Virus record (IMG/VR): IMGVR_UViG_3300026518_000010
DNA: 20,000 nucleotides
Reading direction: 5' to 3' (one strand)
Source: an uncultured virus (IMG/VR IMGVR_UViG_3300026518_000010)
Taxonomy: Duplodnaviria > Heunggongvirae > Uroviricota > Caudoviricetes
Shown: positions 3,426 to 20,000 of the stretch, in pieces
Layout: each line of letters starts with the position of its first letter
How positions within the stretch are numbered: position 1 is the first letter of the stretch
Notes under the pieces: generated by a model
Seen by the model: only the letters and a program-made list of their open reading frames with translations
What the model was told of the DNA's origin: nothing
The model's database searches: none
Translations under genes and position numbers: made by a program

Positions 3426-3450
3426 TTTATTCTTGCAGTTTAGTAATTTA
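3426..3450 (-). promoter_or_regulatory. Putative phage early-type promoter
   Basis: Minus strand TAAATTAC-TAAAC-TG-CAAGAATAAA. Its 3426-3443 segment is 17/18 identical to 15991-16008 and it resembles the phiKZ early TATATTAC box. Confidence 0.55.
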
Positions 3451-7419: not shown

Positions 7420-7513
7420 TGTATATCCTTTATATTAATTTATTTTTATTAATTTCAAGAAAATCAATACTGTGAACTAAATAATAAAGAGTAAAGAAAG
7501 TTAAGGAGATATT

Positions 7514-8989: not shown

Positions 8990-8990
8990 C

Positions 8991-9021
8991 TACTATTAGT
9001 AAGGATCCCTTACTAATAGTA
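8991..9021. terminator. Bidirectional terminator between convergent genes
   Basis: TACTATTAGTAAGG-atc-CCTTACTAATAGTA 14-bp perfect stem. Confidence 0.8.
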
Positions 9022-9032
9022 ACTATACTTTT

Positions 9033-9233
9033 CTATCTAAAAACTACATAGATATCTTTACAATTTTCATTATTTTTAACACTATCATAAGCAGTATAAA
9101 ATTTAATAAAATCTGTATACGAATCTAACACAGACTTATATTCACCATTTTCTTGTTTTTCTTTATAGTGTATAAAATACACATCTTTATAAAGACAAGT
9201 AAGAAATAATTTACATATCTCAAATATTTTCAT
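9033..9233 (-). CDS. Small hypothetical protein (66 aa)
   Basis: ORF with an AGGAG SD, filling the space between two terminators. Confidence 0.6.
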   Translation of the reverse strand: MKIFEICKLFLTCLYKDVYFIHYKEKQENGEYKSVLDSYTDFIKFYTAYDSVKNNENCKDIYVVFR

Positions 9234-9266
9234 ATCTTACTCCTATTGATTAAAAAAAAGTAAGAA

Positions 9267-9286
9267 GTGGATAATTTATTATCCAC
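9267..9286 (-). terminator. Terminator after the 279-aa structural gene
   Basis: GTGGATAAT-tt-ATTATCCAC followed by a U-tract on the minus strand. Confidence 0.7.
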
Positions 9287-9299
9287 GTCTAATACTTAA

Positions 9300-11785: not shown

Positions 11786-12370
11786 CTATCTCCTATAATA
11801 CGTTAAATTTATTTTACCGTTATGATTTAAATCGCCAGTATAAAATTTACGCCCATAATAATATTCTACATCATCTAACATAACAATTGTACCATCGTCT
11901 TTTTTTAATATATAATCGCTATTTAAAAAATAAAATTTATTATCTATAAGTTTAAAATCATATTCTAATTCAAACATACCTTTTCTAACCTCTACTGTTT
12001 CTTTTACTAAATTACCAAAAACATTATCAACGGCATTTAAATTAATTTTACTATATAAGGTATTTATATTTGTCTGTATATCTACAATCTTCATAACCCT
12101 CTCATCTATTTCTTTTACTATATCTTTTCTCTGATTTAATTCATCTAACGTTTTAGCTAAATCTGGTTCATTATCTTTAATAAAATTAATTAGATTAAAA
12201 ACAGCTTTAGCATAAGTCATATCCATAAATTCACTTATAACTTTGGCTGCTTCATTTATACCTGCTTTCTCTCTAATTTTCTTACTTAATTCATCTATGG
12301 ATAAATTAGTATTTTTTAAATCTTTACATACAGCAGCTATATCTTCTGCTTTAAAATATAAATCAGCCAT
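11786..12370 (-). CDS. Hypothetical coiled-coil protein with beta-rich C-terminal domain (possible virion protein)
   Basis: 194 aa, AAGGAG SD, first gene of a three-gene operon. Confidence 0.65.
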   Translation of the reverse strand: MADLYFKAEDIAAVCKDLKNTNLSIDELSKKIREKAGINEAAKVISEFMDMTYAKAVFNLINFIKDNEPDLAKTLDELNQRKDIVKEIDERVMKIVDIQTNINTLYSKINLNAVDNVFGNLVKETVEVRKGMFELEYDFKLIDNKFYFLNSDYILKKDDGTIVMLDDVEYYYGRKFYTGDLNHNGKINLTYYRR

Positions 12371-15990: not shown

Positions 15991-16015
15991 TTTATTCTTG
16001 CATTTTAGAAATATA
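15991..16015 (-). promoter_or_regulatory. Putative phage early-type promoter of the nvRNAP beta'/helicase operon
   Basis: Minus strand TATATTTC-TAAAA-TG-CAAGAATAAA immediately upstream of the SD. Confidence 0.55.
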
Positions 16016-16053: not shown

Positions 16054-16077
16054 TAACTGAGTTATTTAACTCAGTTA
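16054..16077 (-). terminator. Terminator overlapping the stop of the MazG-like paralog
   Basis: TAACTGAGTTA-tt-TAACTCAGTTA plus long U-tracts. Confidence 0.75.
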
Positions 16078-16349
16078 CTATTAAATTTATTGTACCATTT
16101 ATTTAGTTTATTTTTGATTACTTCTTTAAACTTTTTTTCATCATCTAAATTATGAAATAAACCATAATTTACTGATATAATATCTGCTACTTCTTCTATT
16201 ACTTTCTCTCCAGTACCTTCAGCTGATTTTAAAGCATTAATATCTTCTAAAACTCCTTGCGTTGCTTCTTCAATTTCTTCTAGTAATTCTGATACTTTTT
16301 CTTTTAATACATCAGCTACTGATGTAAATTTACCATCTTTATTTTCCAT
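16071..16349 (-). CDS. MazG-like NTP pyrophosphohydrolase paralog (diverged duplicate)
   Basis: EEIEE...KSAEG...IEEVAD. Clearly homologous to 16712..17020. Start placed at ATG 16349 behind an AAGGA SD. Confidence 0.7.
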   Translation of the reverse strand: MENKDGKFTSVADVLKEKVSELLEEIEEATQGVLEDINALKSAEGTGEKVIEEVADIISVNYGLFHNLDDEKKFKEVIKNKLNKWYNKFNSN

Positions 16350-16372
16350 TATTAATCCTTTATAATAATCCA

Positions 16373-16531
16373 TTACTTAGAAAAGTAATCGTTGAAATTT
16401 GTCTTATATTCTACTACTTCTCCATTACTTAATTTACAAGAAATCTTCTTATAACTATAATTATCTGTTTTTAATCTAATTAATTCTTCGAATTCCAGAC
16501 TGTACACTGTTCTAATTTTTATTGCTTTCAC
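16373..16531 (-). CDS. Chimeric 52-aa ORF: first ~23 codons of nvRNAP beta' fused in frame to the C-terminus of the 174-aa protein (possible pseudogene)
   Basis: GTG at 16531 with duplicated SD and promoter. Translation MKAIKIRTVYSLEFEELIRLKTD-NYSYKKISCKLSNGEVVEYKTNFNDYFSK*. CAA has become TAA relative to the parent. Confidence 0.65.
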   Translation of the reverse strand: MKAIKIRTVYSLEFEELIRLKTDNYSYKKISCKLSNGEVVEYKTNFNDYFSK

Positions 16532-16546
16532 AATGTCTCCTTTTTG

Positions 16547-16571
16547 TTTATTCTTGCATTTTAGAAATATA
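16547..16571 (-). promoter_or_regulatory. Duplicated copy of the putative early-type promoter
   Basis: Identical to 15991-16015. Confidence 0.55.
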
Positions 16572-16711: not shown

Positions 16712-17020
16712 TCATTCTTTATTAAATTTATTATACCATTTATCAATTTTCTTTTGTAACGTTTCTTTAAATTCTTTTTCACCATCTAAGTGGTATATTA
16801 AATCATAAGCTACTAATATAACATCACTTACTTCTTCTATTATTTTTTCTCTACTACCCTCAGCTGATTTTGAAGCATTTTTACAATTAACATATTTTAG
16901 AACTTCTTGTGCTACTTCTCCAGTTTCTTCTGTTAATTTTAATGCTTTTTCTTCTATAGTAACTTTTAATTTCGATACTTCAGCTACTGTAGTAAACTTA
17001 TTATATTTAAATATTGCCAT
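16712..17020 (-). CDS. MazG-like nucleotide pyrophosphohydrolase (all-alpha NTP-PPase)
   Basis: KLTEETGEVAQEV...IIEEVSDV matches the EExGE...E-x-x-D motif. Start at ATG 17020 behind an AAGGA SD (the ORF track starts at 17044). Confidence 0.85.
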   Translation of the reverse strand: MAIFKYNKFTTVAEVSKLKVTIEEKALKLTEETGEVAQEVLKYVNCKNASKSAEGSREKIIEEVSDVILVAYDLIYHLDGEKEFKETLQKKIDKWYNKFNKE

Positions 17021-17022
17021 TT

Positions 17023-17547
17023 TTAATCCTTTACAATAATCCATTGTTTAGAAAAGTAATCATCAAAATTTGTTTTATATTCTACTACTTCTCCATTACT
17101 TAATTTACAAGAAATCTTCTTATAACTATAATTACCTGTTTTTAATTCGATCTTATCATTCTCGTCTAGATAAATATATTCAAAACTGTCATTTTCTTTA
17201 TTGGTTAATTTATAACCGTCTTTGATCAAATTTAAAGTTTCTGAAAATGTAAATTCTGAATCTAGTTCTTTGTAGTATCTATCTACGATTGGTTTAGGTA
17301 TAAATTTTACATACTGATTTCTATGGATTTTTTCTTTCTTTAGTGATTCTATGTCTAGTAATAAATTAACTAGATTATATCTCAATACTCCTACAATGTC
17401 ATTTGGTTTTGAATGTACAAGATATTCTATAGCGTCTTTCTCGATAAGTACATAATCACATAAGTTATTTATTTTTTCTAATTCCTCTTTTGTAACTTCT
17501 ACTACATCTTCAACTTTTTCGCATATGTATAATTTCTTTACTTCCAT
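17023..17547 (-). CDS. Hypothetical phage protein (174 aa)
   Basis: ORF with an AAGGA SD, translationally coupled to the MazG-like gene. C-terminal FTFSETL..IK.G.K.....D.FS..W module. Confidence 0.75.
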   Translation of the reverse strand: MEVKKLYICEKVEDVVEVTKEELEKINNLCDYVLIEKDAIEYLVHSKPNDIVGVLRYNLVNLLLDIESLKKEKIHRNQYVKFIPKPIVDRYYKELDSEFTFSETLNLIKDGYKLTNKENDSFEYIYLDENDKIELKTGNYSYKKISCKLSNGEVVEYKTNFDDYFSKQWIIVKD

Positions 17548-17777
17548 TTTCTGTTCCTTCTTTTGTCTACTCCTGGTGATTTAATAATTTATTTACTCTT
17601 TGCAATAAATAGCTTATTTTATAAAAAATATTCTAGACCCTAATTCTTAACCTTTGGTTCCATTTCACAAAACTTATCAATTACTCGGTATTTCCCTTGT
17701 TTTTCTTAATTTAATATTTTTTTTTATTTTTTATTATAGAGTGATTTATAGGAAGTATTAGTACCTTATATACACGC

Positions 17778-18025
17778 GATAAAATATATAGAAAGAGATA
17801 AAGAGTAAATAAAAGAAAAAAATAAAGAAAATAAGCACTAACATAAAGACTAATATATAAATCTTATATATATTATATTATATATTATTATATATATACT
17901 ACGTATATATATTATTATTATATTATACAATATACACAAAATTCACATATCACCCTCCATCCTAGTCCTCATTCTCTCTATTTCCTTCTCTCATCTTCTC
18001 TTCATCCCTCTCTATATATTTTATC
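17778..18025 (-). other. Giant strand-specific fold-back (122/123-nt arms, C-GTA-G loop)
   Basis: Manual alignment of 17778-17899 with the reverse complement of 17903-18025 gives 93 Watson-Crick pairs, 22 G-T/U wobbles (minus strand), 7 purine-purine mismatches and 1 bulge. Confidence 0.9.
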
Positions 18026-18091
18026 TATAAGTTGAGGATGCAACTTTGAAATATACGTTTATTTATAGAATTTTAAACTTATAGATAAAAT
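18018..18091. repeat. 16-bp perfect inverted repeat overlapping the base of the giant hairpin
   Basis: ATTTTATCTATAAGTT (18018-18033) pairs with AACTTATAGATAAAAT (18076-18091). Confidence 0.8.
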
Positions 18092-18429
18092 GAATCTGAC
18101 TTAAATTTAGAAATTTACTGTTTAAAGAGAATAAGACTTTGAAAAACAGAAAATAAAATTAAATATAAAAAACTAAAAGAAAAATGAAGAAGAGAAAAGA
18201 GATTTAAGAATTTAAGTTAGATTCTGAAAAAGCATATATTGATACAAAAAAGTATCGAGAGAATTTGTCCCAATTTTCTAATTTAAATTTAAAGCATATG
18301 GTATTGAATTTATAACTGACATTAAGTTAACAAAAAATTCGCTAGTATAGCTTTAAATCGTGTGGTAAAAAACAAAAATAATACTAGTTGCCATTTTGTA
18401 TTATTTATTTACGAGTTTTGTCTTTTTTA

Positions 18430-18880
18430 GTAAAGTAGGAAGTTTTATACTTCTTGCTTTATGAACTTTTTTAATTAAAAATTTACTTTATGCTATATAG
18501 TGACAGCGTAAGTAAAACAACATCAAACACAATTTTTAGAATAGACTTGTTGAACATACAGTCCTATTTGATAATCCAAGGCTACACACCTAAGTTAAAA
18601 AAAATTACAGCTTTTACTCGTTCCGAACATAGATAAAAATTCCAGAGTGTCATTGAGAGTTAATGTTACTTGCGCATTAGCAATTAGAAAATACATAAAC
18701 GTTACTTTACTTTTCCATATGGTAGCTGCAATGTAATTCTCTTTTTTTGTTTACTAATTTTAGATTTTTAATAAAATCTTACGCTGTCGTAAATATTTCC
18801 TTTAATTTAGTTTTTTTACTCGGACTAAATATTTAATATCTAAGTAGAGCGTACCTCTACTTAGATACTCCTTTTTTTTA
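18430..18880 (+). ncRNA. Candidate structured non-coding RNA
   Basis: No long ORF. Long-range helix 18500-18512/18778-18790, several internal stems with plus-strand G-U pairs, and a terminator at the 3' end. Confidence 0.45.
18837..18880 (+). terminator. Plus-strand intrinsic terminator upstream of the nuclease gene
   Basis: TATCTAAGTAGAG-cgtac-CTCTACTTAGATA followed by ctcc and a T-run. Confidence 0.75.
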
Positions 18881-18926
18881 TTTTATAATGATTATTTAAA
18901 CAAATTATAAAATACAAAGGATGTGA

Positions 18927-19685
18927 ATGAACAATGGAACAGAAAGATATAGTGTTTTATTCTTTATCGTTAGTATATTTTTATTGTTTACTACAAATCT
19001 ATTTGGTTATGAGCCATATGGGAAAAGGTGGTTAAACATGAAAATATTAGATATGAATAAAGTAGATAAAAGGGTAAATTTAAGAATAGAAGCAAAATGT
19101 GATCAGGTATTAACTAATCCAGGTAGTTATATATGTTACGATTATAAATCTAAAGGACCTTTATTTAACATATATACTGCTGACAATAGAGTTAATAAAG
19201 TTAATCTTAAACATAGATTAAAATTTAGACCAGATAAAAGAATACCTGTAGAGTATAGAAGTGATATTAGATGCTTTGCTAATAATGATTACGATTTAGG
19301 ACATTTAAAACCAGATGCTGATGCCGACTGGAGTGTTAAAAGTTTAAAATATACTTATTTAATGTCTAATGTCGTACCACAACCATCTAAGATAAATAGA
19401 TATGTGATTTCTAAATGGGAAGATGTTGAAAGAGATATGACTAAAGTTGGAGTTATTATTGTTATAACTGGAGCTGATTATTATAATAGTCAACATTTAA
19501 ATAACGATTGTAATTGTACAAGCTTACCTAAAGATTATTATAAAATAATATTTGTTAAAAATAGTGATGGCAATTATTATCCTAATATGATGTTTGTGGC
19601 TTATAAGTATGGTAAAGTTAAGTTCTACTCTAAAGAAAGATATATTTATAATTTTTTAAGAAGAAGAGGAATTAAAATTTTATAA
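18927..19685 (+). CDS. DNA/RNA non-specific endonuclease (NucA/Serratia nuclease/EndoG family) with N-terminal signal or membrane anchor
   Basis: F-x-PD-x-RIP, YDLGHLKP (DxGH catalytic His), MSNVVPQ...IN...W...E, VITG and LP..YYKI. Hydrophobic N-terminus YSVLFFIVSIFLLFTTNLFG. AAGGATG SD. Confidence 0.92.
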   Translation: MNNGTERYSVLFFIVSIFLLFTTNLFGYEPYGKRWLNMKILDMNKVDKRVNLRIEAKCDQVLTNPGSYICYDYKSKGPLFNIYTADNRVNKVNLKHRLKFRPDKRIPVEYRSDIRCFANNDYDLGHLKPDADADWSVKSLKYTYLMSNVVPQPSKINRYVISKWEDVERDMTKVGVIIVITGADYYNSQHLNNDCNCTSLPKDYYKIIFVKNSDGNYYPNMMFVAYKYGKVKFYSKERYIYNFLRRRGIKIL

Positions 19686-19877: not shown

Positions 19878-19899
19878 AGGTGATCTTTAAAGATCACCT
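19878..19899 (-). terminator. 22-bp perfect palindrome centred on the stop codon of the partial minus-strand gene
   Basis: AGGTGATCTTT|AAAGATCACCT, followed by a small hairpin GCCTAT-g-ATAGGC (19863-19875) and U-runs. Confidence 0.6.
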
Positions 19900-20000
19900 T
19901 CATACACTTCTGGTAAAACCCATTGTTTACGTGCATCAGTGTATGATGTTTCGTCTATCATTTTTGCTTTGCCTTTCATTGGTTCATTAGGAACACCTAG
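19887..20000 (-). CDS. 3' end of a gene entering from the right edge (hypothetical, partial)
   Basis: Open frame LGVPNEPMKGKAKMIDETSYTDARKQWVLPEVYEGDL* with TAA at 19889-19887. Confidence 0.65.
   Translation of the reverse strand, partial: LGVPNEPMKGKAKMIDETSYTDARKQWVLPEVYEGDL

Follow-up and report, generated by a model that had tools for sequence, protein, structure and literature searches.

In which form, and on which strand, can a long palindrome-like DNA segment have a meaning when essentially one of its two strands is able to fold? This question is raised by a 248-nt imperfect inverted repeat lying in a 20,000-nt stretch of DNA (IMG/VR record IMGVR_UViG_3300026518_000010; hereafter the window) of an uncultured hydrothermal-vent giant phage. 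From the folding of both strands, shuffling controls and the scanning of related DNA, we propose that the strand-specific fold is probably under selection. More tentatively, and while holding it to be somewhat less than probable, we favour the view that the element is a minus-strand hairpin RNA maintained by selection under AT pressure.

Strand-specific pairing of the fold-back

The global alignment of the left arm (17778-17899) with the reverse complement of the right arm (17903-18025) yielded 93 matches, 22 transitions (21 A/G and 1 C/T), 7 transversions (4 T/A and 3 C/G) and a 1-nt gap, exactly the figures that an earlier inspection of the letters (hereafter the sequence-only reading) had obtained by hand count. 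At the DNA level the arms are 76% self-complementary over 122 nt; a repeat search delimited them as 17778-17890 and 17913-18025 (113 nt, 74% complementary). On the minus strand all 22 transitions correspond to G-U or G-T pairs (21 G-T and 1 T-G), and the transversions to A-A (4) or G-G (3) mismatches; on the plus strand the same 22 transitions are all of the A-C type (21 A-C and 1 C-A). The minimum-free-energy (MFE) structure of the minus strand is a single stem of 114 pairs (80 A-U/U-A, 12 G-C/C-G and 22 G-U), capped by the C-GTA-G triloop which that reading had rightly noticed. The lone reverse wobble (U-G at 17940/17863) has its G in the opposite arm, and the wobble pattern thus tracks the strand, not the arm. 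A gapless fold-back scanner allowing strand-specific wobble pairs was run on the window, on the related loci L001-L010 and on the whole contigs of two relatives (179,975 and 185,491 bases), the relatives' DNA scanned amounting to about 545 kb. With it, the element scores 92 (minus strand) and 26 (plus strand), and no other site in the window exceeds 22. The coordinates of the element and of its surroundings are collected in Table 1.

Table 1. Coordinates of the fold-back, its parts and the neighbouring features in the window (MFE, minimum free energy; ORF, open reading frame).
Feature	Position	Strand	Description
Whole fold-back	17778..18025	minus	114-115 bp stem and 3-nt loop; RNA MFE -124.6 kcal/mol
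5' arm of the minus-strand hairpin	17903..18025	minus	purine-rich: 54 A, 34 G, 33 T, 2 C (123 nt)
3' arm of the minus-strand hairpin	17778..17899	minus	U-rich: 70 T, 36 A, 10 C, 6 G
Triloop	17900..17902	minus	GTA closed by C-G; the plus strand has TAC closed by C-G
(TA)n-rich apex	17853..17927	both strands, nearly symmetric	period 2, 41.5 copies
Left half of perfect 16-bp inverted repeat	18018..18033		covers the last 8 bp of the hairpin base; 100% complementary
Right half of perfect 16-bp inverted repeat	18076..18091		42 nt between the arms
ORF-poor gap with the hairpin	17548..18926		1379 nt, between divergent genes; largest ORF-free gap of the window
First leftward gene	17023..17547	minus	174 aa; weak Tad2-like C-terminal match (PF11195, E 0.0011, under the curated cut-off); phrog_872
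First rightward gene	18927..19685	plus	DNA/RNA non-specific endonuclease; PF01223, E 1.5e-20; phrog_14168
Terminator-like hairpin and T-run	18430..18462	plus	terminator scan
Second terminator-like hairpin and T-run	18837..18867	plus	terminator scan

On the plus strand the left arm is an A-rich tract with a 12-nt periodicity and the core ATAAAG (TRF period 12, 4.2 copies at 17781-17831; lag-12 autocorrelation z 3.8-3.9). In the right arm it is less marked (z 1.0-2.0), and both arms probably derive from a short tandem repeat. At the apex, the (TA)n tract contains an inverted repeat with 16-nt arms, 88% complementary and 3 nt apart, which could, judging from its letters, extrude as a small cruciform. 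The purine-rich 5' arm carries Shine-Dalgarno-like GGAGG strings and five AUGs (positions 21, 32, 54, 66 and 78 of the arm), spaced 11-22 nt. Within this arm, the stretch GGAGGGUGAU-AUG-UGA (minus strand, 17946-17972) comprises an extended Shine-Dalgarno-like string, a start codon and an immediate stop, and would be sequestered in the stem.

Stability of the fold and chance controls

Both strands were folded with RNA and with DNA parameters, and the strand asymmetry claimed in the sequence-only reading was borne out in both cases. As RNA, the minus strand folds with an MFE of -124.6 kcal/mol (z -19.8), which none of 200 dinucleotide shuffles equalled, versus -46.8 kcal/mol (z -7.9) for the plus strand. 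The corresponding values with DNA parameters are -38.4 (z -9.2) and -16.8 (z -2.6), the latter being reached by 3 of 200 shuffles. At 70 C the contrast persists (-35.7 kcal/mol for the minus strand versus -2.8 for the plus strand), which may matter because the sequencing runs containing the stretch are hydrothermal-vent metagenomes. In a context of 713 nt (17548-18260) the minus-strand stem is unchanged (z -12.4), while the plus-strand fold of 17700-18300 is weak (z -2.7).

The pairing far exceeds what low-complexity sequence gives by chance. When the letters were shuffled within each arm (n=200), the minus strand reached only -38.8 +/- 3.9 kcal/mol, with a minimum of -50.1, versus -124.6 for the real sequence, and the pairing is therefore not a low-complexity effect. 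Under symmetric neutral change, the ratio of 22 wobbles to 0 A-C has a two-sided binomial probability of about 5e-7. It is also worth noting that the positions departing from Watson-Crick pairing spare the 15-bp base and the 10-bp apex of the stem (P 0.0036), and that the interior interruptions are more evenly spaced than chance would have it (gap variance, P 0.0004; largest gap, P 0.018), with no more than 6 bp of perfect pairing in a row. Such even interruptions fit a retention of the fold combined with a breaking of the DNA palindrome. The earlier suggestion of a selection for a one-strand hairpin that avoids a full palindrome gains from this evenness; in the relatives fetched, no copy was found that could speak to conservation or covariation.

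A candidate minus-strand hairpin RNA

Two processes can yield the observed pattern, and both implicate the minus strand: selection for the fold under AT pressure, or a loss of C to T restricted to that strand. In the reading that we tentatively prefer, the 248 nt would be functional, or at least selected, only as the minus strand in single-stranded form. This form would most likely be a leftward RNA issued from a divergent control region at about 18030-18090, with the hairpin close to or at the 5' end of a transcript, which might be independent or might be the leader of the leftward block of genes (the Tad2-like gene, two MazG-like genes and the RNA polymerase (RNAP) beta gene). In a genome of about 25% GC, G-C pairs would decay to A-U; selection on the minus strand would permit this decay via G-U only and would purge the A-C intermediates, leaving the 22 G-U and 12 G-C pairs, and no A-C, that are seen. 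The same changes would bring the self-complementarity of the DNA down to 76%, with interior perfect runs of at most 6 bp, so that the palindrome should be tolerable in double-stranded DNA (dsDNA).

RNA is favoured as the folded molecule because it is the usual single-stranded form and because a share of 19% G-U pairs is typical of RNA stems. It is also favoured by the location of the hairpin, 230 nt upstream of the start codon of the 174-aa leftward gene and directly downstream of a compact, symmetric, control-like region, where promoter-like hexamers are found on both strands (18018-18091). By inference, the RNA might serve as a 5' stabiliser, an RNase III processing site, or a double-stranded RNA (dsRNA) decoy in an anti-defence-like island.

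Several observations weigh against this proposal. With the composition of each arm held fixed, the within-arm shuffles alone average 21.2 G-U and 4.9 A-C oppositions. The "22 of 22" stressed in the sequence-only reading is thus correct as a count, but it mostly restates the unequal composition of the arms. Given that composition, the lack of A-C is only moderately surprising, and the true anomaly is that 34 G in the minus-strand 5' arm stand opposite only 10 C in the 3' arm. The AGAG-type, 12-nt periodic sequence may have produced the even spacing of the interruptions as a side effect. Furthermore, seven purine-purine mismatches (4 A-A and 3 G-G) are tolerated and yet there is no A-C, which requires either that A-C was purged more strongly than purine-purine mismatches or that mutation was biased. 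Considering the transition/transversion ratio of the neighbouring paralogue pair (48:26), the selection hypothesis is, by our own arithmetic, coherent only if the majority of the changes creating mismatches, whichever their kind, were eliminated.

The signals expected around a leftward transcript also tell against it. The sigma-70-like promoter matches number 6 versus 14.0 expected in shuffles, phiKZ-like phages use their own RNA polymerases, and both terminator-like sites of the gap (2 found versus 0.4 expected) lie on the plus strand. The 18-nt motif CTAAAMTGCAAGAATAAA, of which the minus strand of the window has three copies (3426-3443, 15991-16008 and 16547-16564) versus 0.3 expected, a number reached by 0 of 200 shuffles, probably is a phage-specific promoter, as suggested by the position of each copy 15-30 nt before a ribosome-binding site; it was not found in the gap (17548-18926). 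No RNA run is among the listed runs containing the stretch. Finally, the scanner found no comparable fold-back in the relatives (best scores of 23 in L001-L010, and of 22 and 28 in the two whole contigs), and the accessory island around the hairpin is not syntenic in the relatives examined.

Alternative explanations

The minus strand might instead fold as single-stranded DNA (ssDNA), as a strand-specific priming or primosome-loading signal or as a hairpin promoter at or near a replication origin, in the manner of G4-type origins, ssiA and Frpo, a possibility that we regard as unlikely. A transcript or primer made on the hairpin template would run rightward, in the plus sense, which is the strand of both terminator-like sites lying to the right. 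The strand asymmetry does hold with DNA parameters (-38.4, z -9.2, versus -16.8, z -2.6), and a (TA)n tract accompanies the 12-nt periodic arms (z 3.9 for the left and 1.0-2.0 for the right). An iteron-type origin would have arrays of initiator-binding repeats next to an AT-rich unwinding element at the skew switch; no initiator was recognised. The GC skew changes sign at about 18000, with a cumulative minimum at 17501-18500 (within the window). The skew inflection with which the sequence-only reading had proposed to compare the element is thus present at the gap, but it coincides with the switch in gene orientation and so does not count as independent evidence; we found no specific support for the origin, packaging or nucleus-tethering roles that it had listed. 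Extruding a 115-bp hairpin on one strand of a duplex leaves the poorly pairing plus strand unpaired, no counterpart occurs in the relatives examined, and we know of no ssDNA stage for this kind of dsDNA phage. The minus-strand loop C-GTA-G is a GNA triloop, and such loops, which make DNA mini-hairpins very stable, are described from the G4 origin, ssiA and the N4 promoters (PMC13037366), while Frpo is described as a long ssDNA stem-loop upstream of early genes (PMC9849209). However, the signals described in the first of these sources are short (40 nt for ssiA, heptamers for the mini-hairpins), and its mini-hairpin motif is GC-GNA-GC, whereas here a single C-G pair closes the loop and is followed by A-T pairs (PMC13037366). 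We also doubt that the element is a non-functional, decaying palindrome, generated by a template-switch inverted duplication of the 12-nt-periodic purine tract and then altered by C-to-T changes on the minus strand only, through a possibly heat-driven deamination of the non-template or lagging-template strand that would make the wobbles a mutational scar, the alternative raised in the sequence-only reading. Such a history would suit a lineage-specific element in a recently rearranged region (the tandem duplication of the Tad2-like/MazG cassette), the simple and periodic sequence of the arms, the tolerance of seven transversions and one indel, and the strong C-to-T pressure of a genome of about 25% GC. 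It would also suit the context dependence of the U-rich arm, where the positions followed by A are U in 10 of 10 cases, versus 9 of 19 for those followed by T. It requires, however, that 22 of 34 ancestral minus-strand C changed versus 0 of 34 G, the chance of which is 2 x 0.5^22 with symmetric rates and, by our own arithmetic, still about (2/3)^22 with a 2-fold strand bias; the required bias is far beyond the local skew. The sparing of both stem ends and the over-dispersed interruptions are not predicted by a random scar, and the minus strand of the paralogue pair exhibits both A/G (32) and C/T (16) differences, i.e. no one-type process, although this coding sequence is a weak control.

Imperfect intergenic palindromes such as ERIC/IRU, Correia and RUP are 100-150 bp long, multi-copy and endowed with defined ends, and their fold, which is transcribed into RNA hairpins, is often kept on one strand; the element, seen here in one copy, differs from them in being twice as long, periodic and of low complexity. 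That it is a copy of a fold-back mobile repeat of phage or host (a miniature inverted-repeat transposable element, or an ERIC- or Correia-like repeat) with the fold kept on one strand appears quite improbable to us, in spite of its perfect 15-bp termini and its location in an accessory island. Only one copy occurs in the 20-kb window and none in the approximately 545 kb of relatives, no match was found in the phage collection, and exact words of the right arm are absent from viral_contigs (26-mer) and from genome_contigs (20-mer). By eye, the flanks (...ACACGC and TATAAG...) share no direct repeat that would represent a target-site duplication, and the arms, periodic and of low complexity, do not amount to a defined terminal repeat. 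It is very unlikely that the plus strand is the functional one, as a regulatory RNA whose C/U-rich right arm, with its anti-Shine-Dalgarno-like strings (AUCACCCUCC), would be kept accessible by the A-C mismatches. The plus-strand terminator-like sites downstream would suit this idea, as would the 34 C of the right arm in a window where the start codons all follow AAGGAG-type sites. It leaves unexplained both the 76% complementarity over 122 nt and the fact that the transition mismatches all pair on the other strand, and neither a target nor a conservation of such an RNA is known. As for a fold-back artefact of the assembly, we rejected it by reasoning: such artefacts give perfect repeats, whereas the element is 76% complementary and its flanks are unique.

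Comparison with known systems

The closest parallel to the proposed hairpin RNA is an artificial one. In the hpRNA[G:U] transgenes designed for plants, one arm is altered from C to T, so that the inverted repeat is lost from the DNA and the RNA hairpin remains fully paired through G:U wobbles, a principle demonstrated by experiment; DNA methylation and self-silencing are thereby avoided (PMC9263138). Similarly to these constructs, which have a G:U share of about 18-26% and stems of 200-450 bp, the element has 19% of G-U pairs (22/114) and a stem of 115 bp, which we regard as comparable; unlike them, it is a natural phage element, with 22 of its 34 G positions wobbled and 7 true mismatches (PMC9263138). 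The likeness appears to be an analogy of principle, not of family. If the minus-strand fold is indeed selected, the element would be an unusually clean natural case of a very long RNA or ssDNA hairpin made without an unstable DNA palindrome, i.e. by the same G:U trick that plant biotechnologists reached by design.

On a bolder and improbable version of the preferred reading, the G:U-buffered long hairpin would have evolved naturally in a nucleus-type jumbo phage, in which DNA that is itself a poor palindrome would encode a dsRNA stem of about 115 bp. The RNA, expressed from an anti-defence island, might titrate the host factors that act on dsRNA (RNase III, RNA-sensing immunity), as a decoy or sponge, or it might form a heat-stable cap structure at the 5' end of early transcripts in a hot-vent host. 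If selected, the fold would also represent a type of non-coding element that has yet to be described in phiKZ-like phages, and it would indicate on which strand, and where, an early or accessory transcription unit of this uncultured vent phage begins. If the pattern is only a scar, it records an extreme strand bias of cytosine loss, which has some interest for the study of mutation in hot, AT-rich genomes. The weight of these implications is limited by a single unconserved instance known from its letters alone.

Among DNA signals, Frpo of F-like plasmids, ssiA and the G4-type sites resemble the element in being strand-specific non-coding folds upstream of early or anti-defence-type genes, and GNA triloops such as that of the minus strand occur in ssDNA priming hairpins (PMC9849209; PMC13037366). 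The signals treated in these sources act on DNA that enters the cell or exists as single strands, and Frpo rebuilds -35 and -10 boxes for the host RNA polymerase, of which no equivalent is shown here (PMC9849209; PMC13037366). Likewise, the GCGNAGC mini-hairpin has two G-C pairs, whereas the minus-strand apex reads ACGTAGT (PMC13037366).

The promoter of the N4 virion RNAP, to which the sequence-only reading had linked the triloop, is described as a short hairpin with a GC-rich heptamer centred at -11 and a mid-loop purine contacted by a T7-like polymerase (PMC4496689). The N4 hairpin, located on the template strand, shares with the element a DNA hairpin with a 3-nt loop and the context of a phage with its own RNA polymerase. 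In contrast, the present stem is 114-115 bp long and AT-rich with one C-G at the loop, and the centre of the minus-strand loop (GTA) is T, the plus-strand loop being TAC. The N4 enzyme is a T7-like single subunit, whereas our 20-kb window, as far as it extends, encodes a multisubunit-type RNAP beta (phrog_3015) (PMC4496689). An N4-type promoter was rejected: the short GC-rich heptamer hairpin and the central loop purine are both missing, and of the features that define the hairpin itself only the GNA loop agrees.

Small RNAs of giant phages offer a nearer biological context. Those reported as sRNA005 of phage 201phi2-1, the position of which is conserved across genera, and as the small RNA upstream of gp182 in phiKZ were filtered at <250 bp and have branched folds (PMC11512511). 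The element resembles them as a putative, non-coding, structured RNA associated with the 5' untranslated region in a phiKZ-like phage, and differs from them by its single 115-bp stem, its lack of conservation and its location in an accessory island (PMC11512511). The injection-stop region of T5 is a looser analogue, being a large untranslated region, acting in cis on DNA, where repeats, inverted repeats and palindromes are crowded together; it is described as conserved across 25 phages, with 8 DnaA boxes in the terminal repeat, and neither conservation nor DnaA boxes are shown here (bioRxiv 10.1101/866236). A limited literature search, which did not cover supplementary tables, turned up no long one-strand fold-back in jumbo phages. 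An intrinsic terminator was rejected, since neither strand has a T-run after the stem and the element is not among the sites of the terminator scan. Membership of an Rfam family was also rejected, with 0 matches in the window at gathering score and one chance-level match (E 0.82) elsewhere in the gap.

The phage and its relatives

The phiKZ-like setting implied in the sequence-only reading proved sound. To judge from its genes, the window, of about 25% GC, is from a phiKZ-like phage of very high divergence. Its products include a major capsid protein of the PhiKZ type (PF25620, E 6e-92), an RNAP beta subunit (phrog_3015, E 1.8e-109), a "polymerase" (phrog_2943), an SF2 helicase and a DnaB-like ATPase, the last of which is divergent. 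For the capsid protein, 212 phage records were matched, none of them reaching 60% identity, and the matches with the best coverage are about 25% identical. The stretch is present in 5 sequencing runs from 3 studies of hydrothermal-vent metagenomes (shares 0.97, 0.97, 0.95, 0.33 and 0.17), two of which may be its source.

No DNA match to 17400-18900 was found in 50,697 phage records, and neither the endonuclease nor the 174-aa protein has a match in viral_contigs. The endonuclease profile retrieved one locus in metagenome_contigs (L001, 49% identity), which is not syntenic with the window and has no fold-back, and the helicase profile retrieved nine loci in viral_contigs (L002-L010, 30-62% identity) and 0 in genome_contigs. 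Closer relatives exist at the protein level, namely P0001 for the endonuclease (98% identical) and P0008-P0010 for the helicase (62-71% identical, P0008 reaching 71%), all of them encoded on ENA contigs. The core block comprising RNAP beta, helicase, DnaB and capsid genes is syntenic in L002-L007, and the small genes and the endonuclease beside the hairpin are not. In L003 and L007 co-oriented genes precede the RNAP-beta gene without a large gap, and in L002, the RNAP beta of which is 78% identical, the 1.66 kb upstream of this gene hold three co-oriented small genes. From this comparison of gene order, the hairpin appears to lie in a lineage-specific accessory island. As to the similar G-T-biased fold-backs that the sequence-only reading had thought to seek in related phages, none of comparable score came to light in the approximately 545 kb (best score 28 versus 92).

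Shorter hairpins do occur in a relative. On the plus strand at L023:5490-5554 (G002 contig 45490-45554) there is a strand-specific hairpin of 31 pairs, with 21 Watson-Crick, 9 G-T, 0 A-C and 1 other mismatch. At L025:10107-10411 (G002 contig 90107-90411), three perfect or near-perfect palindromic hairpins with stems of 21-26 bp and no wobble lie within 300 bp; this cluster could be, from its layout, a terminator cluster or an origin-like site. In L002, the closest relative fetched, a motif of about 20 nt (TCTAAT-TGTAGCATTAT-like) is repeated three times in tandem in the spacer upstream of RNAP beta (L002:1465-1565), and CTAAACTGAAATTAAAA, which is related to CTAAAMTGCAAGAATAAA, precedes the RNAP-beta gene.

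Surrounding genes and signals

The location given by the sequence-only reading, in the largest non-coding gap and at a switch in gene orientation, is confirmed, and two further switches exist in the window (about 7420-7513 and 8990-9299). A coding reading of the gap was rejected and no tRNA was found in it (17548-18926). The approximately 900 nt right of the hairpin (18026-18926), which contain no ORF longer than 48 aa, may hold one or two plus-strand transcripts, either non-coding or with micro-ORFs. The 19-mer at 18070-18088 (ATTTTAAACTTATAGATAA) is repeated exactly at 11940-11958 on the other strand, inside a 194-aa gene (blastn E 9e-5), and looser copies of its core are not enriched in the window. 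The motif AACTTATAGATAA was rejected as a promoter, with 3 exact copies only and looser matches at chance level (8 versus 7.0 expected, and 3 versus 2.1).

At the right edge of the window, the partial minus-strand ORF (19887-20000) has no match to the 746-aa protein that precedes RNAP beta in L003. On the leftward side, a cassette of two genes is duplicated in tandem in the minus-strand segment 16071-17547: the Tad2-like gene, by its 3' end, and a MazG-like gene (about 16712-17150) recur at about 16071-16560, with 340 identical positions, 74 substitutions and 31 gap positions in a local alignment, which makes paralogues of the two MazG-like ORFs (110 aa and 100 aa). On the rightward side, the N-terminus of the endonuclease (window 18927-19020) is hydrophobic (SVLFFIVSIFLLFTTNLFG), which suggests a secreted or membrane-anchored nuclease.

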